Position numbers and translations under genes: made by a program. A DNA stretch of 64,000 nucleotides, taken from Laspinema palackyanum D2b (GTDB taxonomy: Bacteria > Cyanobacteriota > Cyanobacteriia > Cyanobacteriales > Laspinemataceae). The DNA is taken from NCBI RefSeq assembly GCF_025370835.1, contig NZ_JAMXFE010000013.1. The stretch is one strand, 5' to 3'. The notes below the pieces were generated by a model, which saw only the letters and a program-made list of their open reading frames with translations, had not been told where the DNA came from and ran no database searches. Below are positions 7,351 to 23,885 of this stretch, piece by piece; positions within the stretch are counted from its first letter, which is position 1, and each line of letters starts with the position of its first letter.

Positions 7351-10300
7351 CTAGCGGCCCATCTTGACTAAAACCCAGTCACGAGACTCCTCTGCCAGAT
7401 AGAAATCCGGTTGAATTTCTAGGGCTTTTTCGTAGGAAGCTAGAGCCTCATCGTACCGTTCAATCGACTCCAGGGCGATTCCCCGTTGAGTCCAGACTAA
7501 GGCATCTTGGGTTTGAGCGGCGATCGCCTGATCAAACGATTCGATCGCCTCACTATAACGCCGGAGTTCATTGAGTGAGATCCCCCGATTCGCCCAGGAT
7601 CGGCCATCCCTTGGATCAAACTTCACCGCTTGATCAAACGAGGTAATTGCCTCTTCATAACGGCGTAGTTCCATTTGTGCCAAACCGCGATCGCGCCAAG
7701 CTAGATGAAAACTCTCCTCAATCGCCAAGGCGCGATCAAACGCCTCGACTGCCTCAAAGTGACGACCCAACCCCAGACTCAGCAAGACGCCGCGATTATG
7801 CCAGCCTTTATAAAACTCCGGTTCGATCGCCAGAGCCTGATCGTAAGCCGCTAACCCTTCCGCAAATTGACCCGCACTATACAACGTCGTTCCCTTAGCA
7901 TTCCAGGCGAGATAGAACTCTGGATTAATTTCCAAAGCGCGATCATACGACGCGATCGCCTCATCCAGACGCTGTAACTGATTGAGTAATCGACCCCGTT
8001 CCAACCAGGCATTCAAATCATCCGGGTTGCTTGCCAACTGGCTATCGTAAGCAGCCAGAGAGCGTTCAAAAGCGAGATCGGCCTCCTGGGGACGTTGCAA
8101 ATAGTCTAACACCAACGCCTTGCGTTCCCACCCTTGGGCGTCATTCGGCTCCTCTTCTAAGGCTTGGTCCAGGGCGGCTAGAGCCTCATCGTAGCGCTGT
8201 AAACTGAGTAATGCAAGGCCCCGACCCTTCAGGGCATTCACATCATTCCGACGAAGTTCTAAAGCGCGATCGTGAGCTGCGATCGCCTCCTCGTAGCGCT
8301 GTAATTGATACAAAGTTTCCCCGCGATTGTTCCAATAGCGGGCATTTTTGGGTTCTAAACGGCTGGCATTGTCATAAGCCACGAGAGCTGAATCATAGCG
8401 ATCGAGCAGATAAAGCGCATCCCCGCGACATTTCCAAGCTAAGGCATGATCCGCCTTAATCCCGATCGCCTGATCGCACTGATCCAGGGCTTCCAGGTAG
8501 TCCTGAGACTCCAAAAGCAGGCTGGCATTGTCGATAAATTGGTCCGAGTCTTGACGCGCTTGACGAGCTTGCTGAGAATTGCTCAGGGCGATCGCCACCC
8601 CTGCCGTTCCCATCAGGGCCACCACGGCCAGAATCGGCCAGGGTTTGGCAAAAGGTAACTTTTTGGAAACTTGGGTCACCCCTGGTACAGCCGCAGCACC
8701 GATGGGAGCCTTCGCTTTATTCGCTTTAACCGGGGCACTCGCCCCTAGGTCTGCCTGGGGCTGTTCTGGGGGGACCTGGGGAGAGACAAAACCCTCCGCC
8801 CCCATCGGCACCGGGACCGACTCTGGAAAAGGGGTCATCACCGGCTCTTGGAGGGCGCGCAAGTCCGCTAACACCTCTTGAGCCGATTCATAGCGCTCAC
8901 GGAAATAAGAGCGCACCATTTTATCCAGAATTGCCCCAAAGCGATCGCTCACCTGAACGTGCTTGCGCCAACTGATTTCTCCCGTATGGGGTTCCGTCCC
9001 CAGATAATCCGGACGCACCCCGGTTAACGCTTGCAGGGCCACTGTCCCCAGAGCGTAGATATCGCTATTCGGGCGGGGATTGCCCACCATTTGCTCCTTC
9101 GGCATATAGCCCGGGGTCCCGATCGCCGTCGAAGTCGTGAGCTGGCCCTGGTCAATGGTCAAGGTGCCAATTTGCTTCACCGCGCCAAAATTGGTCAACA
9201 TCAGCTTACCGTCGGACTGACGCCGGAAGATACTCCAGGGGGTTAAATCCAAATGAATGGCATGATGTTCATGAACGAAGGCCAGAGTTTCTAGGACCTC
9301 TTGTAATAAAGCCACGGCCTCCTTTTCCTCGTACTTTTTGCCCTGGAGTAATTCATGAGAAAGGGACTGTCCCTCAATCTGCTCCTGGACCAAATAAAAG
9401 GCTCCATTTTGCTCAAAATCTGCCAGCAACGTGGGGATGCGGTCATGAGTGCCTAAACGGTGTAACAGTTGCGCTTCTGCATCAAAAAAGCTTTTGGCTT
9501 CCCACCAGGGAAAAGTCTCTTGTTGAACGGGTTTAATTTGCTCCACCGTACACCAGGGCATTTCCTGGCGTTGTAAATCCTCCCCTAAAAAGGTTTTACT
9601 AAAGCGGCGTTCCGCTAACAGACTCACCAATTGATAGCGACCATCGAGCACATTGCCAATTTCATGTAAAGACCGTAAATCAGACAGCACCTCCGTCGCC
9701 TGTTGGTAGCGGTCTTGATAATCTGAGCGCACCATTTTATCCAGAATTTGCGCCAACTTCGGGTTGACCGGGGCCAAATGGTGCCAGATGGTTTGACCCG
9801 TTTTGGGGTCTCGCTCTAACTCCCGGGGGGGGACGCCGGTTAAGGCTTGAATGGCGGTCATACCGAGGGCATAAATATCGCTATTAAAGCGAGGTTTGCC
9901 CCCGAGTTGTTCGATGGGGACATAACCCGGAGTGCCGATCGCCGCTGTCCCAACTTGTCCTTGAGGATTGATAGCTAAGGTTTCGATTTCTTTAAAAGAC
10001 CCAAAATCCACCGGGATAATTTTGCGATCGCCCGTCCGTCGGATTAAATTAGAGGGTTTAATATTGCGATGAATTACCGAGTGCTGATGAATGAACGCTA
10101 ATACTTCCAGGACTTGATGCAATAGCGCCATCACCAAGCCTTCACTCCAGCGGTTGCCTCGGATAATTTCTTGACTGAGGTCTTGACCTGGGATAAATTC
10201 TTCAACAATATAAAATTTTTGCTCCTCCTCAAACCCATCCAAAATTCCCGGAATCAGGGGATGAGCGCTTAATTTTTGCATGACTTCGATTTCTCGTTGC

Positions 10301-10500
10301 AAGCGCCCACGGGCTTCGGTCAGCAGGGTGGGATTGGAAAGATTCGGCTGGAGTTGTTTAATGACACAGGGGCGGGGTTGGTCCGGCTGTTGTCGGTCTT
10401 CAGCCAGATAGAGTTTACCAAAAGCACCTCGTTTAAGGTCTTTGATCAGTTGATAGCGCCCTTGGATGAGCTGTCCGGTCATGGCGTTCATCAGTTGCAT
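7351..10500 (-). CDS. Tandem Ser/Thr protein-kinase-domain protein with a C-terminal TPR array; both kinase domains carry substitutions in catalytic motifs
   Basis: Domain 1 has VIK, HRNIKPSN (HRD Asp replaced by Asn), DFG and GTPGYxPxE. Domain 2 has HLDLTPWS and NFG (DFG Asp replaced by Asn). The TPR consensus (W-LG-Y---A---Y--AL-L-P) repeats about 12 times. Confidence 0.9.
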   Translation of the reverse strand: MQLMNAMTGQLIQGRYQLIKDLKRGAFGKLYLAEDRQQPDQPRPCVIKQLQPNLSNPTLLTEARGRLQREIEVMQKLSAHPLIPGILDGFEEEQKFYIVEEFIPGQDLSQEIIRGNRWSEGLVMALLHQVLEVLAFIHQHSVIHRNIKPSNLIRRTGDRKIIPVDFGSFKEIETLAINPQGQVGTAAIGTPGYVPIEQLGGKPRFNSDIYALGMTAIQALTGVPPRELERDPKTGQTIWHHLAPVNPKLAQILDKMVRSDYQDRYQQATEVLSDLRSLHEIGNVLDGRYQLVSLLAERRFSKTFLGEDLQRQEMPWCTVEQIKPVQQETFPWWEAKSFFDAEAQLLHRLGTHDRIPTLLADFEQNGAFYLVQEQIEGQSLSHELLQGKKYEEKEAVALLQEVLETLAFVHEHHAIHLDLTPWSIFRRQSDGKLMLTNFGAVKQIGTLTIDQGQLTTSTAIGTPGYMPKEQMVGNPRPNSDIYALGTVALQALTGVRPDYLGTEPHTGEISWRKHVQVSDRFGAILDKMVRSYFRERYESAQEVLADLRALQEPVMTPFPESVPVPMGAEGFVSPQVPPEQPQADLGASAPVKANKAKAPIGAAAVPGVTQVSKKLPFAKPWPILAVVALMGTAGVAIALSNSQQARQARQDSDQFIDNASLLLESQDYLEALDQCDQAIGIKADHALAWKCRGDALYLLDRYDSALVAYDNASRLEPKNARYWNNRGETLYQLQRYEEAIAAHDRALELRRNDVNALKGRGLALLSLQRYDEALAALDQALEEEPNDAQGWERKALVLDYLQRPQEADLAFERSLAAYDSQLASNPDDLNAWLERGRLLNQLQRLDEAIASYDRALEINPEFYLAWNAKGTTLYSAGQFAEGLAAYDQALAIEPEFYKGWHNRGVLLSLGLGRHFEAVEAFDRALAIEESFHLAWRDRGLAQMELRRYEEAITSFDQAVKFDPRDGRSWANRGISLNELRRYSEAIESFDQAIAAQTQDALVWTQRGIALESIERYDEALASYEKALEIQPDFYLAEESRDWVLVKMGR

Positions 10501-14469: not shown

Positions 14470-14512
14470 TTAAATAAGACCCCCATCCCGTAAGATGAAA
14501 GGGTCTTATTTT
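14470..14512 (+). terminator. Intrinsic terminator after ctp (AAGACCC...GGGTCTT hairpin followed by ATTTTTTTC)
   Basis: Stem-loop plus T-run read directly. Confidence 0.55.
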
Positions 14513-14560
14513 TTTCTTGTATCCCTCCAAGGGAACTCCAAAAAATAAAACCCCTAAACT

Positions 14561-14626
14561 GTTCGTAGTGACTCCTTCAGGAGTCCTCTTATTAAAGAAA
14601 CCCCTAAAGGGGTTACTACGAACGGT
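14561..14626. repeat. Diverged copy of the GTTCGTAGT...ACTACGAAC hairpin-repeat family (GACTCCTTCAGGAGTC and AACCCCTAAAGGGGTT hairpins)
   Basis: Flanked by GTTCGTAGTGA ... GTTACTACGAAC, the same terminal motifs as the ACGACT family. Confidence 0.5.
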
Positions 14627-14680
14627 TGGATGATTTATTTTTGCAATCCCCCAAGCAGTCTTTTTAGTTCTTGACGGGCG

Positions 14681-16945
14681 ATGAATCCTTCGCTGACAGC
14701 ATCAAGAGAGGGGACGGAAACGAATAATTATATTGCTCTTATGAATAACCACAAAACCGCACAAATTGCTCAGATTGTCGAAAAACGTCGCCCTTTAGCC
14801 GAAAAAATTACTCGGGTTGAGGACAATTTGAGGTCCCTAGCGCAGGCCCTTCGGACTTTGCAGGACCACCGCAGTCGCCTCTTGGATTCCGTGGAGGATG
14901 TGGCGATCGTCGGACATCTCCAAGACGTGGATTTTTGGAAAATTCAGGTGGAAATTGCCCGGGAATTAGAGGCAACGGCGAAACTGAAAGCGCGGTTTTC
15001 CCGGGATACCCTGAATATAGGCGTTGTCGGACGCGCTAGACAAGGGAAAAGTCGCCTCTTACAAAGTTTAACCGGACTGACGGCCTCGGAAATTCCCGAC
15101 GGCGATCGCCAACATTGTACCGGCGTCCTGAGTACCATTTACCACAATCCCACCCTGGAAACTCACGGGGAAGTGTTCTTTCATAGTGAGCGATCGTTTT
15201 TAGACGAGGCGATCGCCCCCTATTACGACCAACTCCAGCTAGGCCCCGCCCCCCATTCCCTCGATGACTTTGCCAAACAGTCTCTTCCACCCCTACCACG
15301 AGACCTCTACGGCGCACAAACCGGGGCAAAACATGAACATCTCCGCCGATATCACACCCACCTGGACCAGTACCGTACCCTCCTCCAACAGCCCTCTCCA
15401 CGGCGGATTTCTCAAGGGGAAATTCGCGAATATGTCGCACAAGATACTGCCGATGGTCAGCGCGTCTTTTTCAACTATCTCGCTGTGCGTCAAGTTAAAA
15501 TTGTCTGCACCTTTCCCAATGGGGATGTGGGAACCATTGCCTTAGTGGATATGCCCGGATTAGGGGATACCGGCATTGGCGACGAAGTGAGACTGATTGA
15601 AACCCTCGGTCATGAGGTGGATTTTGTTTTATTTGTGAGGATGCCTAAATCCTCGGGGGATTATTGGGCCGATGTGGATGTCAAGTTGTACGACACCGCA
15701 GCAGCAGCGTTAACGGAACTACCGATCGCCCTCTGGTCGATGATGATTCTCAACCAAACCAGTGCCGGTTCTGGCAATGGAGATAATGGCAAAAACTGCC
15801 AAGATTTAGCCGAAACAATGGCGGAAAAACATCTGGAAGTGGTCAAAACCCTCACGGTGAATTGCGCTGATTCTGTTGCGGTGAATCAGCAGATTTTAGA
15901 GGGTGTTTTAGAGTATTTGATGGCTAAAATTACCGAACTGGACCGCCAGTATGCAGCAGCCTGTCAAGACCGACTTTTGCACCTGCGCGATCGCATCGCT
16001 GCCGAACTGGTTAAAGCAAGGCAATCCCTGGGCCAAGCGGCCCAACGAGAGAGTGAATTTCCCCTATTCCTGCGGTTATTTGATGCCCTCTGGAATAACT
16101 TAACCAGTGGGTTAGAAGGATTTTTGCGGGGGCTGTCTCAGCAGCGAGAGGCGGAAGATTTGGAGTTTAAAAAACAAGTCCAAATTGCCATTACCAATTG
16201 TCACCAAGACCCGGGGATTCCTAGCTTAGAAGAGATAGAATCCAGGCGCGATCGCGTGGGAGGATATCCCAATGCGTACTATCAATATTTAAACGAAATT
16301 CGCGCCCATTTATCCCAACATTTTTTGACCTTAGATGATGGATTGAAGCAGGCGATCGAGCGCGTCAAGTCCCGAGTCGCTGATGTGCTAATCGAACAGG
16401 GACGATTAGGAAACCTCACCCCAGTTCGGGGAAGTGAATTTTTAGGCGTAATGGCGGAACTGTTACCGGAAGATTTACAGAAACTCAAACTGGGGTTTAG
16501 AATTTTAGATGAATTTAATTTATCCTATCGCGGACTGATTCAACATCGGATTCGTCAGCAGTTGGATGGATTAAATCCAGATAAGACGGAATTGAAATTA
16601 TCCCATCAAGGGGTTTCGGCGTCGGAAGTTTTAGGAAACTTAAAAACCCTTCATGCCGAAGCGGTTTATAATTGTGAAACTGCCCTGGAAGATTTGTTAA
16701 TTGAACCGAATCAGGCGGCATTTGCGATCGTGGAGGAATTTGTGGATCGGGTGTTGCGCGTGGAAGGAGTGAAAACCGAGTGGCAAATCTTTTTAGAACA
16801 AGTTCGGTCCGAGGTGTGGCAAGATGAATTTGACCGTTTAGGCAGTCGCGATCGGCTACGTCGAGAATGGTTAGCTACCGTGGATACGGTAGAAGCTGGA
16901 AATCAATTGGAATTAATGCAATTTCTGCCTGGGAATAGCCGTTAA
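14681..16945 (+). CDS. Large P-loop GTPase (754 aa), dynamin-superfamily-like: N-terminal coiled coil, GTPase domain, long helical C-terminus
   Basis: G1 GVVGRARQGKSRLLQSLTG, G3 LVDMPGLGD, and extended alpha-helical regions. Family assignment beyond P-loop GTPase is inference. Confidence 0.75.
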   Translation: MNPSLTASREGTETNNYIALMNNHKTAQIAQIVEKRRPLAEKITRVEDNLRSLAQALRTLQDHRSRLLDSVEDVAIVGHLQDVDFWKIQVEIARELEATAKLKARFSRDTLNIGVVGRARQGKSRLLQSLTGLTASEIPDGDRQHCTGVLSTIYHNPTLETHGEVFFHSERSFLDEAIAPYYDQLQLGPAPHSLDDFAKQSLPPLPRDLYGAQTGAKHEHLRRYHTHLDQYRTLLQQPSPRRISQGEIREYVAQDTADGQRVFFNYLAVRQVKIVCTFPNGDVGTIALVDMPGLGDTGIGDEVRLIETLGHEVDFVLFVRMPKSSGDYWADVDVKLYDTAAAALTELPIALWSMMILNQTSAGSGNGDNGKNCQDLAETMAEKHLEVVKTLTVNCADSVAVNQQILEGVLEYLMAKITELDRQYAAACQDRLLHLRDRIAAELVKARQSLGQAAQRESEFPLFLRLFDALWNNLTSGLEGFLRGLSQQREAEDLEFKKQVQIAITNCHQDPGIPSLEEIESRRDRVGGYPNAYYQYLNEIRAHLSQHFLTLDDGLKQAIERVKSRVADVLIEQGRLGNLTPVRGSEFLGVMAELLPEDLQKLKLGFRILDEFNLSYRGLIQHRIRQQLDGLNPDKTELKLSHQGVSASEVLGNLKTLHAEAVYNCETALEDLLIEPNQAAFAIVEEFVDRVLRVEGVKTEWQIFLEQVRSEVWQDEFDRLGSRDRLRREWLATVDTVEAGNQLELMQFLPGNSR

Positions 16946-17084
16946 AAAGGGTGAATGAGAGTTCGTCTTGATAAGTAGTAGGGAGCAAGATGCTCCCACT
17001 CTTTAATATTATAAACGCGGTTTTTAGATGCTATCATAACACGATTTAAAAGCATAAAAAGTATCATCATTTAATTGTTAAATC

Positions 17085-17573
17085 ATGATAGAGATTATTA
17101 TTTTTATCGGCTTGCAAGGGGCGGGGAAAAGCACCTTTTACCGAACCCATTTCGCCGAAACTCATGCTTTGGTGAGTAAAGATTTGATGCGAAATAATAA
17201 AAGACCCGCCCGCAGACAAGCTTTTTTAATCGCAGAACACCTGAAAGCGGGAACCTCCTTAGTGGTGGATAATACCAATCCCACCCGGGGCGATCGGCAA
17301 GATATTATTGAAATTGCACCAGACTATCAGGCAAAGATTATCGGCTATTATTTTGACTCCCAAATTGCCGATTGCCTCACCCGCAATCGACAACGAGAAG
17401 GAAAAGCCAGAGTACCAGACTATGCCCTCTATATGACTCGCAATAAATTAGTCCCCCCGGACTATTCCGAAGGATTTCATCAGTTATTTCAGGTCAAAAT
17501 AGCAGAAAATCCAGGAACCTTTGAAATTCATCCTTGGGTTCAAGAGGAAAAACTTGGACCCGAATCAATTTGA
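17085..17573 (+). CDS. P-loop nucleotide/polynucleotide kinase-like protein (AAA_33-type, 162 aa)
   Basis: Walker A GLQGAGKST at the N-terminus, a Walker-B-like VVDNTN, and a size and lid region typical of Pnk/zeta-like kinases. Confidence 0.75.
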   Translation: MIEIIIFIGLQGAGKSTFYRTHFAETHALVSKDLMRNNKRPARRQAFLIAEHLKAGTSLVVDNTNPTRGDRQDIIEIAPDYQAKIIGYYFDSQIADCLTRNRQREGKARVPDYALYMTRNKLVPPDYSEGFHQLFQVKIAENPGTFEIHPWVQEEKLGPESI

Positions 17574-17943
17574 CCGCAAAATAAGGCAACTGCACTATTT
17601 CCATAATCTATCCCAGGTGGTAGATTACTTTCGGTGGAGACAAGCCGATGCCACTCGTTATGAGATAAACTTAAATGAATTACCCTGATGGCAACGTCGC
17701 GGGACGGGGTTATATTGGGAAAATTACTCCAAAATCGGGTATAATCCGATTATAGGGCAAGAAGTCGTTGCCAGCCGACGGCGAATTAAAATTGATGAAT
17801 CCTTGCCGATGAAGGCCGCTTATAGCAAGTTTATCGCCGGATTATTAGAGATTCGGGAGAATTTAAAGGATAATTGCCTTTAATTCTCCTGACATAAACG
17901 TAACTAAAAAAACAATCAGGTCAACCCTCAACCCAAGAACATA

Positions 17944-18906
17944 ATGCAGGAATTAAAAGTCACCATGCTGGGACCCAGTGGCGTGGGTAAAACTAGCCTT
18001 TTGACTGCCATGTATGAGCAATTTGAACGCAGTATTGGACAAACCAATTTGCAACTAACGCCAGACTTAGAAAGTGCAGCCTTGCTACAAGAACGATTAG
18101 CTGAACTGAAAACCCTACCGGACAGTTTTGAAACAAAAGGATGGATGCAGAGTACAGAAGACCATAAATCTTTTATCTTTGAGTTGGGAAGAAGAGGCGC
18201 AATTCCCTCATTAGCGCTGCATTTTCAAGATTATCCCGGAGAATATCTCGCCGCCAAAAGTTCGCGGGAAGAAAAGGAACGAGTGGAGACATTTGTGCGG
18301 GAATCAGCAGCGGTGGCGATCGCAATTGATACCCCTGCCTTAATGGAAAAAAACGGCCAATGGCATGATGCGGTCAATAAACCCCAACAAATTGCCAATT
18401 TATTTCAACGAGTCTATCGCGAATTAGAGTCTCCCCGCTTGGTGATTTTTGCCCCAGTCCGCTGCGAAAAATACTTACAAGACGAGAAAAGCAGTGCGGA
18501 ATTAGTCAGGCAGGTGCAAGCGGGATATGCGAGGGTATTAGATTTATTGCGATCGGAATCTTTACTCTCAAAAGTCGTCGTGATTATCACCCCAGTTCAA
18601 ACCGTAGGAACTGTGGTGTTTTCTCGGATTGAAATGCTGGATGGAAAACCGCTATTTATTTTCCGAAAAACCAGTCACGATGCCCAATACAATCCCCAAG
18701 ACAGCGAACAGCCTTTGCGCTATTTGTTACGGTTTTTGCTCAGACTCCATTTAGATCGACGTAATTTAGGATTGTTTAATTTTATCCGAGATTGGTTAGG
18801 ATTGGATAATCACCTCAAAGATGCAGTCCGAGAATTTGCCAAGGGCTGTAAAAATACGGGGGCTTATGCGGTGTTGCAGGGTCAAAATTGGCTGAATATT
18901 GGATAG
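17944..18906 (+). CDS. Ras-like small GTPase domain protein (320 aa) with a C-terminal extension
   Basis: G1 KVTMLGPSGVGKTSLL; G3 DYPGEY in the DxxGQ position. Confidence 0.7.
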   Translation: MQELKVTMLGPSGVGKTSLLTAMYEQFERSIGQTNLQLTPDLESAALLQERLAELKTLPDSFETKGWMQSTEDHKSFIFELGRRGAIPSLALHFQDYPGEYLAAKSSREEKERVETFVRESAAVAIAIDTPALMEKNGQWHDAVNKPQQIANLFQRVYRELESPRLVIFAPVRCEKYLQDEKSSAELVRQVQAGYARVLDLLRSESLLSKVVVIITPVQTVGTVVFSRIEMLDGKPLFIFRKTSHDAQYNPQDSEQPLRYLLRFLLRLHLDRRNLGLFNFIRDWLGLDNHLKDAVREFAKGCKNTGAYAVLQGQNWLNIG

Positions 18907-18915
18907 GAGGATGTC

Positions 18916-19704
18916 ATGGAAATTTATGTAAAAAGTCGAGGATTTGCTCAGGAAGAAGGTTACTGTTGGCTACCCGAAACTCCTTCAATTCTCACCTTAA
19001 ATCGGGTTACAGACTGCATTCAAACCGAATCGCCCTCTCTGGTATTGGGGCGATATAGTGGACGGTTGCTATTGCTGATTACGGGGTTAGAGGCGCGGGG
19101 GCGGACCGATTTTCGCGATCGCACCATTCGCAATTCCATCGCCTGGGTTGCTGAAGATTCCGCCCCCCATGAACAACAGTTACGGGCCATAGCTGTCCGC
19201 GCCTTACGCACTTTTTTAGAGGAAAAAAAAGACGGATTAGATGCGGAAATTGACCAAGCAATTCCCGTGGGAGGAACGGACGGATTTACCGTCAATTGCG
19301 AACTGTTAAAGGGATTATCAGCGAGTGCAACTCTCCCCAATCACCCCCAAAAATCGGACCGAGAACGAGAAGAACATTCTACGGATAAACTCGCCAAAAA
19401 TTGCGATCGCACCAAAGAAACCCTCGCCACCCAACTCGAACAATATGGGTTACCCCAAAGAGAAGGTCCCCTGGTTGTCGTCACCGGAATTAAAAGCAAA
19501 GATGCCTTAATTCAGGCGCGAGTCTGGCGGGGTTTATCAAAAAGTGTAGAAGAGGAAGATTGGACCCCCATTCGGGAAAGACAAGATGCCCCAAATTTTC
19601 CTGGAGAAGCATTTCAACCCGAAAAAAAGTTTAATGAAACCGCCACCTTGGTGGCAGGAATTGTGGCGATCGGGATGTTGTTTTTAGGATTTTTGTGGTT
19701 TTAA
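18916..19704 (+). CDS. Hypothetical tail-anchored membrane protein (262 aa), probably co-transcribed with the small GTPase (10-bp gap)
   Basis: ORF ends in a single hydrophobic helix TLVAGIVAIGMLFLGFLWF; no recognisable domain. Confidence 0.6.
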   Translation: MEIYVKSRGFAQEEGYCWLPETPSILTLNRVTDCIQTESPSLVLGRYSGRLLLLITGLEARGRTDFRDRTIRNSIAWVAEDSAPHEQQLRAIAVRALRTFLEEKKDGLDAEIDQAIPVGGTDGFTVNCELLKGLSASATLPNHPQKSDREREEHSTDKLAKNCDRTKETLATQLEQYGLPQREGPLVVVTGIKSKDALIQARVWRGLSKSVEEEDWTPIRERQDAPNFPGEAFQPEKKFNETATLVAGIVAIGMLFLGFLWF

Positions 19705-19765: not shown

Positions 19766-19800
19766 AAAAAGCCCCCCTTCTTAAGGGGGGTTGGGGGGAT
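19766..19800. repeat. Hairpin AAAGCCCCCCTTCTTAAGGGGGGTTGGGGGGATC, copy 1 (terminator-like)
   Basis: Identical element recurs at 20808-20842. Confidence 0.5.
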
Positions 19801-23321: not shown

Positions 23322-23885
23322 ATGGTCCAAACCCCATCTAAATCGTTAACTTTAGAAGAATTTCTCCAACTCCCTGAAACCAAACCCGCCAGTGAATATA
23401 TTGAAGGCGAAATCATTCAAAAGCCAATGCCGAAAGGAAAACATAGTTCAATTCAAACTGAATTTGCGGCTAGAGTCAATGCCACTCTCAGAGGTCATAA
23501 AATTGCCCGAGCCTTTTCTGAACTGAGATGCAGTTTTGCTGGACAATCAATTGTCCCTGATGTATCAGTCTTTGTCTGGGCAAGAATTCCCCGGGATGAA
23601 AATGGCGAAATTGCTAATATTTTCACAGCACCCCCAAACTGGCTGATAGAGATTTTATCGCCTGAACAGAGTCAAACCAAGGTGACTAAAAAAATTCTGC
23701 ACGCGCTCAAACATGGGACTCAAATGGGTTGGCTCATTGACCCCCAAGAGAAGACCATTTTTGTGTATTCTCCTCAGCAACAAACTGAAGTTTTTGACGA
23801 ACTTGAGCAGCAAATTCCTGTTCCTGCTTTTGCTAGTGACTTGCGACTAACTGTGGCAGAGATATTTGGCTGGCTGTTAGAATAG
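23322..23885 (+). CDS. Uma2-family (DUF820) endonuclease-like protein
   Basis: LTLEEFLQLPETKPASEYIEGEIIQKPMP..H...D..VF is the Uma2 signature. Confidence 0.8.
   Translation: MVQTPSKSLTLEEFLQLPETKPASEYIEGEIIQKPMPKGKHSSIQTEFAARVNATLRGHKIARAFSELRCSFAGQSIVPDVSVFVWARIPRDENGEIANIFTAPPNWLIEILSPEQSQTKVTKKILHALKHGTQMGWLIDPQEKTIFVYSPQQQTEVFDELEQQIPVPAFASDLRLTVAEIFGWLLE

Follow-up and report, generated by a model that had tools for sequence, protein, structure and literature searches.

A conserved triad of GTPase and membrane-protein genes

A cluster of four consecutive open reading frames (ORFs), called here P1 to P4, was analysed in a 64,000-nucleotide stretch of DNA from the cyanobacterium Laspinema palackyanum D2b (contig NZ_JAMXFE010000013.1; the whole stretch is referred to as the window). 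Three of these ORFs, encoding a large dynamin-superfamily GTPase (P1), a predicted small GTPase of the DO-GTPase2 family (P3), and a tail-anchored membrane protein (P4), form a closely linked triad that is inherited together in many cyanobacteria and also occurs in actinobacteria and on plasmids. On balance, we lean toward the interpretation that the triad is a three-component membrane-associated GTPase module, perhaps with a role in envelope surveillance or conflict, into which the gene of a Pnk-like kinase (P2) was inserted. In the ORF listing, all four ORFs are on the plus strand: P1 at 14681–16945 (754 amino acids, aa), P2 at 17085–17573 (162 aa), P3 at 17944–18906 (320 aa), and P4 at 18916–19704 (262 aa). 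They are separated by gaps of 139 bp (P1–P2), 370 bp (P2–P3), and 9 bp (P3–P4); an earlier interpretation of the locus made from the letters alone (the sequence-only reading) had recognised the same ORFs with gaps of 140, 370, and 10 bp.

The ORFs of 18 fetched loci were searched with hidden Markov models (HMMs) built from the orthologue alignments of P1, P3, and P4. Full triads, in which the three genes are adjacent and have the same order and strand, were present at L001–L004, L006–L009, L011, L013, and L015–L017. On the linear plasmid of Streptomyces aurantiacus (L018), P1 (1e-68) and P3 (3e-17) are present, and the place of P4 is taken by a protein of 290 aa, which was missed by the P4 HMM and has a similar starting motif and a tail anchor. 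Seen at 14 independent loci in two phyla, the P1–P3–P4 order is beyond chance; at least 8 loci were found by a genome-contig scan. The hosts belong to Nostocales, Oscillatoriales, and Leptolyngbyaceae, and include the colonial unicellular Aphanothece sacrum as well as Nonomuraea (P1 1e-203, P3 4e-89, P4 3e-17) and Streptomyces, while plasmid-borne copies are carried by plasmid3 of Nostoc carneum, an Aulosira plasmid, and the S. aurantiacus linear plasmid. The spacing within the triad is typically 9–50 bp where the ORF boundaries are clear, with a 1-bp overlap in Streptomyces. The flanking genes differ in every lineage sampled; those downstream are unrelated across loci, and neither a conserved fourth gene nor an enzymatic effector was found 3′ of the triad. 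The proposal of a four-gene cluster thus stood for P1, P3, and P4, which are strongly co-conserved, and failed for the P2 kinase, which accompanies them only in Laspinema A4 and Phormidium CCY1219.

Some loci deviate from the simple triad. In Calothrix sp. PCC 7103 (L008, 4897–12265), P4 is present as three paralogues in tandem (292, 251, and 392 aa) next to P1 and P3, and P3 has a second copy. L005 (8633–15221) is devoid of P1: one 778-aa ORF unites a Ser/Thr kinase, TPR, and DO-GTPase2, and this fused P3 is followed by P4 and then by a kinase-HSP70-DnaJ_C protein of 1027 aa. The L005 contig is labelled as a metagenome-assembled genome of “Rhizobium sp. Q54”, where a binning error is possible. 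In Phormidium willei (L006, 7752–9930), P1 is split into ORFs of 144 and 562 aa, and P4 of L003 (11433–12078) is apparently split or frameshifted; these may be decaying copies or sequencing errors.

P1 is a large GTPase of the mitofusin/BDLP class

P1 is a mitofusin/BDLP-class large GTPase of the dynamin superfamily. Its G domain lies between N-terminal helices and a C-terminal half that is helical throughout, the helices providing the bundle or stalk characteristic of the superfamily, and its fold matches IniA and DLP1/2. The fold class suggested by the sequence-only reading was therefore right, while the length of 754 aa was probably overestimated: the orthologues are about 730 aa long and align from residues 21–25, hence the likely start is M21 at 14741, giving a protein of 734 aa, the size at which the orthologue of Laspinema sp. 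A4 is annotated. The orthologue alignment shows no variation in the G1 (GRARQGKS) and G3 (DMPGLGD) motifs, both already pointed out from the sequence, or in the HCTGV motif of switch I. The G4 site (window 15725–15775; residues ~330–345 in the 734-aa numbering) reads LN(R/Q)T, where the Asn is invariant and the Asp of N/TKxD is missing, and it is followed by a G5-like NCA motif. Another conserved element is an aromatic stripe, (W/E)FPLFxxLFxxLW (window 16040–16090; residues ~438–451 in the same numbering), which immediately follows a loop of low model confidence at the tip of the first long hairpin of helices.

The Dynamin_N model (PF00350), which had been put forward as a check on P1, gave 20.3 bits, that is, below its gathering score of 27, and the P1 orthologues either scored 17–25 bits, under the cut-off as well, or were flagged as weak or faint matches. 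Some of them are nevertheless already named “dynamin family protein”, and the family comprises 722 clusters at 90% identity. No transmembrane (TM) segment was detected in P1 by the hydropathy scan, and P1 matched no well-characterised housekeeping family, an outcome that would have counted against the sequence-only reading had it been otherwise. A sequence-profile search of the PDB returned no solved-structure relatives of P1, P3, or P4 under E 0.003, the matches being confined to the P-loop or spurious. The claim that the two GTPases of the locus are distinct was borne out by the comparison of their profiles with hhalign, in which a probability of 3% was obtained and only 21 P-loop columns were aligned. 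This result also ruled out that P1 and P3 are paralogues forming a “double GTPase”.

P3 belongs by sequence to the DO-GTPase2 family

P3, for which a Ras-like G domain had been proposed, is not a Ras- or Roc-type GTPase; its sequence assigns it to the small TRAFAC GTPases of the DO-GTPase2 family. It passes the Pfam model PF19993 with 41.0 bits (cut-off 27, E 2.3e-10, model positions 3–190 of 226), and most of its orthologues bear a precomputed match to the same model. The motifs GPSGVGKTSLL and DYPGEY were correctly noted earlier, and their G1 and G3 cores are invariant among the orthologues. The Walker B segment of the window protein is DYPGE; the position after the G is occupied by E, G, K, or T in 18 orthologues, and only D96 and G99 are invariant. 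P3 also has a conserved C-terminal extension of ~125 aa. The family includes 818 clusters at 90% identity, and P3 of the window is 98% identical to that of Laspinema sp. A4/D2d.

P4 is a fast-diversifying tail-anchored protein

P4 gave no match in any of the HMM libraries scanned (Pfam, PADLOC, NCBIfam, PHROG); its description relies on the AlphaFold2 model (predicted local distance difference test score 90.7, predicted template modelling score 0.83) and on the alignment of its family. The single C-terminal TM helix recognised by the sequence-only reading was located at residues 241–261 in the model and at 239–262 by the hydropathy scan, and the window protein has no ectodomain beyond it. P4 is a single-pass, N-in membrane protein with a conserved cytoplasmic domain. 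Residues 2–115 of the model contain strands at 2–8 and 16–19, a helix at 24–34, strands at 41–47, 50–64, and 70–80, and helices at 83–99 and 108–115; this beta-beta-alpha-beta-beta-beta-alpha-alpha order is the longin topology. A second alpha/beta lobe (128–221) and a disordered linker precede the TM helix. The top Foldseek matches were TagF (three entries), DENND10, FNIP2, CPLANE, FLCN, and GATOR1, none of them significant (best E 6.8e-3, TM-score about 0.25). Judged from the model, the chances are roughly even that the cytoplasmic domain is a longin/DENN-like GTPase regulator, which we consider a lead and not a result.

The P4 family (612 clusters at 50% identity, a size similar to that of the P1 and P3 families) diverges faster than its partners: across the cyanobacterial orders P4 is 27–47% identical where P1 and P3 are 57–78% identical. 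The conserved part is always the N-terminal ~215 aa. The TM segment is kept in 179 of 206 family members and starts near residue 235, while the tail beyond it is at most 10 aa long in 55 members, 11–50 aa in 41, and longer than 50 aa in 83; some of the tails are WD40 propellers and most are without a Pfam match. A conserved NTPase core combined with a fast-diversifying membrane-spanning partner is the pattern expected of a sensor or adaptor. The P4-family representative P0316 (515 aa) contains two P4 cytoplasmic domains in tandem and no TM segment, and such duplications, like the tandem P4 genes, fit a domain working as a dimer. Gene fusions of the Rosetta-stone type between P3 and P4 or P1 and P4 were not found; the candidate, P0316, proved to be this tandem P4-domain repeat.

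The kinase gene P2 is a lineage-specific insertion

P2 is a standalone Pnk-like kinase. Its classification as a Pnk/AAA_33-type P-loop kinase by the sequence-only reading was confirmed (AAA_33, E 9.6e-16), and it also matched the kinase domains of Pnkp and PNK-3′Pase (about 1e-12) and the phage polynucleotide kinase family phrog_505 (6e-10). Its match to TIGR04075 was limited to the kinase-domain portion (1.3e-12) and reached 46.8 bits versus 750, consequently P2 is not a full Pnkp. Homologues were found only in Laspinema A4 (L011, 82% identity) and Phormidium CCY1219 (L012, 68%), in both cases just 5′ of P3. Of the 15 neighbourhoods outside the window that contain P3, 13 lack the gene (listed: L001–L009, L013, L015–L018), including all plasmid-borne and actinobacterial ones. 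In the window it is part of an insertion of ~1 kb that parts P1 from P3–P4, while in Phormidium CCY1219 the order is kinase, P3, P4, with 20 bp between the kinase and the P3 ORF. P2 is thus a lineage-specific insertion outside the conserved core, being either an accessory gene or a hitch-hiker in the Laspinema/Phormidium lineage, and as a correction of the annotation it should not be counted within the system.

Non-coding elements and neighbouring genes

The hairpins that the sequence-only reading had placed on both sides of the cluster are present. Upstream of P1, an imperfect inverted repeat with 43-nt arms of 72% complementarity was located by repeat search at 14542–14642, 3′ of the terminator-like hairpin (14472–14511) belonging to the ctpA-like gene. 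It is not a dispersed repeat, having a single copy within the window, nor a known RNA: the sole Rfam match was hairpin-shaped and sub-threshold (28 bits, cut-off 100). Downstream of P4, a G/C-rich palindromic hairpin (CCCCCCTT / AAGGGGGG, arms 100% complementary) lies at 19772–19790 and is terminator-like solely on the minus strand. A further terminator-like hairpin on the plus strand, GGGAGCAAGATGCTCCC followed by a T-rich tail, occupies 16981–16997, 36 bp 3′ of the P1 stop codon, and is defined by a consensus match only; because it trails P1, this gene may have its own transcript and be transcribed apart from P3–P4 in this lineage.

The 370-bp gap between P2 and P3 contains an open frame on the plus strand (17704–17883, ending in EVVASRRRIKIDESLPMKAAYSKFIAGLLEIRENLKDNCL before the stop codon), recognised by translation and tblastx. 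There is no ATG, GTG, or TTG in it ahead of 17803, and a stop codon parts it from P3. At the protein level it is conserved in Phormidium CCY1219 (tblastx: 69% identity over 32 aa, E 2e-10), where the counterpart is in-frame with P3 and extends it N-terminally by 49 aa. The frame of the window could encode a leader peptide, provide an alternative start, or be a remnant.

The neighbourhood of Laspinema sp. A4 is syntenic with the window. About 4 kb upstream of the cluster, on the minus strand (7351–10500), the window encodes a protein of 1049 aa in which two Ser/Thr kinase domains in tandem are combined with a TM segment and a lengthy array of TPRs; the gene is kept in Laspinema A4, and no tie to the triad was seen. 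In five lineages, genes of the Uma2 family (PF05685, restriction-endonuclease-like) are no more than a few kb away from the triad (window 23322–23885; L009 6785–7480; L011 15369–16620; L012 10802–11455; L013 12396–13037). Uma2 genes are very abundant in cyanobacteria, and their recurrence near triads may be due to chance. In Aphanothece sacrum (L013, 936–2710), a HEPN and GmrSD_N pair and an IS605 TnpB were found near the triad, and Peptidase_C14 and CHAT-TPR giants are encoded downstream in Nostoc sphaeroides and a Leptolyngbyaceae genome (L014/L015). Such conflict-type neighbours (HEPN + GmrSD, CHAT or caspase, NERD) are present at some loci and are inconsistent across loci.

A model for the triad and its alternatives

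In the model we propose, P4 would anchor the system at the membrane, and its longin-type cytoplasmic domain, probably as a dimer, would serve P3 as a platform or scaffold, an exchange factor for guanine nucleotides (GEF), or a GTPase-activating protein (GAP). The nucleotide state of P3 would recruit or activate the dynamin-like P1, which itself has no anchor, and P1 would remodel, tether, fuse, or reseal the membrane, while the ectodomain of P4, where present, would couple an extracytoplasmic cue to the P3 switch. P1 is proposed as the output since no conserved enzymatic effector accompanies the triad. This scheme of anchor, switch, and dynamin-like motor is common to a conflict role and a housekeeping role. 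A conflict or envelope-stress role, that is, a response to phage or membrane damage, is the least certain step of the model; it is suggested by analogy with the DO-GTPase conflict systems, DynA, IniA, and Eleos, and we hold it tentatively, with slightly less than even confidence. The plasmid-borne and cross-phylum copies, the non-conserved flanks, the paralogues, the tandem expansion of P4, its fast-evolving ectodomains, the occasional decay, the conflict-type neighbours at some loci, and the published predictions for DO-GTPases are counted in its favour.

Several findings weigh against this interpretation. The proposed link between P1, P3, and P4 comes from gene adjacency (9 bp between P3 and P4) and co-conservation, and in the window P1 is parted from P3–P4 by ~1 kb and a terminator-like hairpin, while in Phormidium CCY1219 it is on a different contig; strict co-transcription is therefore not required. 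P1 itself may not be GTP-specific, because its G4 (LNRT) is without the guanine-specifying Asp and guanine specificity is thus not assured, and its aromatic stripe is a candidate membrane-inserting paddle that may equally well belong to the core of the helical bundle. There is little defence signal: nothing significant was returned when the core proteins P1, P3, and P4 were scanned against PADLOC, NCBIfam, and PHROG, the triad matched no phage record, and there was no viral contig among the matches listed. P1 and P3 are 57–78% identical across Nostocales, Oscillatoriales, Pleurocapsales, Chroococcidiopsidales, and Leptolyngbyaceae, which is a housekeeping-like level, and the genes flanking the module in the window (ispG, a ctpA-like gene, a dienelactone hydrolase gene, DapL) are housekeeping genes, as they are in Laspinema A4. 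The last findings, including the lack of PADLOC, PHROG, and viral signals, would also suit a mostly vertically inherited, constitutive membrane-dynamics machine of cyanobacteria, acting in the biogenesis, fusion, or repair of the thylakoid or plasma membrane and having no conflict role, the more so as a part in membrane dynamics has been widely proposed for cyanobacterial dynamin-like proteins (DLPs; PMC5827413). This explanation is possible but unlikely in our estimation: the triad is also found in non-photosynthetic actinobacteria and on plasmids, its flanking genes change from lineage to lineage, some of its copies are paralogous and P4 is expanded in tandem, the evolution of P4 is rapid and its ectodomains vary, P1 of L006 and P4 of L003 appear to be decayed, and the census of cyanobacterial DLPs contains no universal one (PMC5827413).

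The other two explanations change the composition or the novelty of the system. A four-gene operon, in which the Pnk-like kinase cooperates with both GTPases and the membrane protein, in keeping with the four-gene cluster of the sequence-only reading, might be argued from the position of the kinase gene directly 5′ of P3 in two genera, as close as 20 bp in Phormidium CCY1219, and from the kinases found in L005 and in some DO-GTPase systems (PMC7159879), although those are Ser/Thr protein kinases. P2 is of the nucleic-acid-kinase type (Pnkp, phage Pnk) and unrelated to them, it is missing from every other triad locus examined, and in the window it is bounded by the terminator-like hairpin and gaps of 139 and 370 bp; we find such an operon improbable. 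The triad could also be a divergent form of a known dynamin system, either Eleos (LeoA/LeoBC) or a paired-BDLP operon (DLP1/DLP2, DynA, IniA/IniC). The fold of P1, matching IniA and DLP1/2, and a weak similarity between the PADLOC LeoBC model and P1 (E 1.6e-3, 15.6 bits), confined to residues 45–143 in its N-terminal part, point in this direction. The pairing of dynamin-like GTPases that had been suggested by comparison with BDLP, DynA, and Eleos was not found, however, as P1 is the only dynamin-like protein of the locus: the second GTPase, P3, is a 320-aa DO-GTPase2 protein with no helical stalk, neither the LeoA nor the LeoBC model of PADLOC was matched significantly (LeoA not at all), and a P4-type partner belongs to none of these systems. 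This possibility is already largely refuted and is the least probable of all. The sequence-only reading was right in recognising no described system in the combination. The membrane-associated three-component module remains the interpretation that we favour.

Comparison with known systems

DO-GTPases were defined as the central component of “GTPase-centric conflict systems” (Kaur, Burroughs, Iyer, & Aravind, eLife 2020; PMC7159879). These systems comprise one or two paralogous DO-GTPases (two in 38% of the published systems) and a GAP1 protein with N (N1 or N2), M, and C domains, which is either encoded downstream of the DO-GTPase or fused to it, together with a GASH-domain protein in the N1 type or an FNIII-repeat protein in the N2 type; GAP1 often has a C-terminal TM segment and variable extracellular domains, and kinase (Ser/Thr protein kinase) and HSP70 themes appear in some systems (PMC7159879). 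The family is predicted to act at the membrane (PMC7159879; PMC11237479). The triad resembles them in that P3 falls in the DO-GTPase2 model, that a non-enzymatic partner is encoded directly 3′ of the GTPase and, like GAP1 in many N2-type systems, has variable domains behind a C-terminal TM segment, that a second GTPase is present, and that both are predicted to act at the membrane. Both are also found in filamentous actinobacteria and on plasmids, and the kinase-TPR-P3 fusion and the kinase-HSP70-DnaJ_C gene of L005 echo the kinase and HSP70 themes, linking the triad further to the DO-GTPase systems.

In spite of these similarities, no GAP1, GASH, or FNIII model was matched by the triad in the scans run. 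By hmmscan, GAP1-N, -M, -C, and GASH were absent from P4, P1, and three divergent P4-position proteins; two scans, each covering 44 members of the P4 family, did not show GAP1 in their lists of the 25 commonest families, so that P4 is analogous to GAP1 only in its position and its C-terminal TM segment; and neither GASH nor FNIII was matched in P1–P4 or in the downstream genes of 8 loci. In addition, the second GTPase is the 730-aa mitofusin-like P1 and not a paralogous DO-GTPase, P3 has no zinc ribbon, and the Walker B glutamate, described as conserved in DO-GTPases (Kaur et al., 2020, PMC7159879), appears not to be conserved among the P3 orthologues. DO-GTPase systems were reported to be “nearly completely absent” from cyanobacteria (PMC7159879), whereas the triad is abundant there. 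Considering the lack of GAP1, GASH, and FNIII matches and the dynamin-superfamily nature of the second GTPase, we regard the triad as a variant of its own, outside the published DO-GTPase systems; it would be their sister system in a phylum where those were reported as nearly absent.

With the bacterial DLP systems (Nostoc BDLP, Campylobacter DLP1/DLP2, Bacillus subtilis DynA, mycobacterial IniA/IniC, SynDLP, LeoABC/Eleos), the triad shares the location of P1 in an operon with another GTPase, and a role in membrane remodelling or protection is plausible for it too. It differs from them in that the partners of P1 are a small DO-GTPase and a tail-anchored protein instead of a second DLP, and that P1 scores below the Dynamin_N gathering score, has no TM segment, and carries an atypical G4 (LNRT). 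For Anabaena cylindrica PCC 7122 and Microcoleus PCC 7113, the 2018 census of cyanobacterial DLPs gave no DLPs other than those of the tandem or KGK type, while the assemblies of these species carry at least P3, and that of A. cylindrica the full triad; thus, the P1 family seems to have been missed by the census.

The third comparison is with the longin, Roadblock, and DENN regulators of small GTPases (MglA-MglB, Rag-Ragulator/FLCN-FNIP/GATOR1, Rab-Mon1/Ccz1, DENN-Rab) and TagF of type VI secretion. The P4 model has the longin order of secondary structure elements, the best structural matches of P4 are among these proteins, its gene adjoins that of a small GTPase, and the occurrence of P4 domains in tandem or duplicate is compatible with longin/Roadblock platforms, which are habitually dimers. 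A connection between TagF and DENN is not mentioned by Zhang et al. (2012) and is not relied on here. On the other hand, no sequence similarity to P4 is detectable, the structural scores are marginal, P4 is itself membrane-anchored, and P3 belongs to the DO-GTPase family and not to the extended Ras family. It is a doubtful though attractive idea that the triad mirrors in bacteria the endomembrane logic of eukaryotes, in which a small GTPase acts as the switch, a longin-type GEF or GAP as its platform, and a dynamin or mitofusin as the effector: P4 would set the nucleotide state of P3 on a specific membrane, P3-GTP would license P1 to fuse, tether, or seal this membrane, and the P4 ectodomains would sense attack on or damage to the envelope. 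If true, membrane immunity or repair by such a GTPase cascade would constitute a new class of system that is widespread among actinomycetes and filamentous cyanobacteria, and if P4 is truly of the longin/DENN type, bacteria would share the three-part logic of eukaryotic membrane traffic, which bears on the origin of GTPase-regulator pairs.

No description of the P1–P3–P4 triad was found in the literature searched. The superfamilies of the components are already known and P3 is tagged by Pfam; what is new, relative to that literature and to PADLOC, is the conserved combination, in which a mitofusin-like GTPase is joined by a DO-GTPase and by a longin-like protein with a tail anchor. The model offers a testable functional hypothesis for the ~600–800 sequence clusters per component that are now “hypothetical protein”. 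Compared with the known systems, the triad would represent a third architecture for bacterial dynamins, in which a DLP is controlled by a small GTPase and a membrane-anchored adaptor and not by a second DLP.

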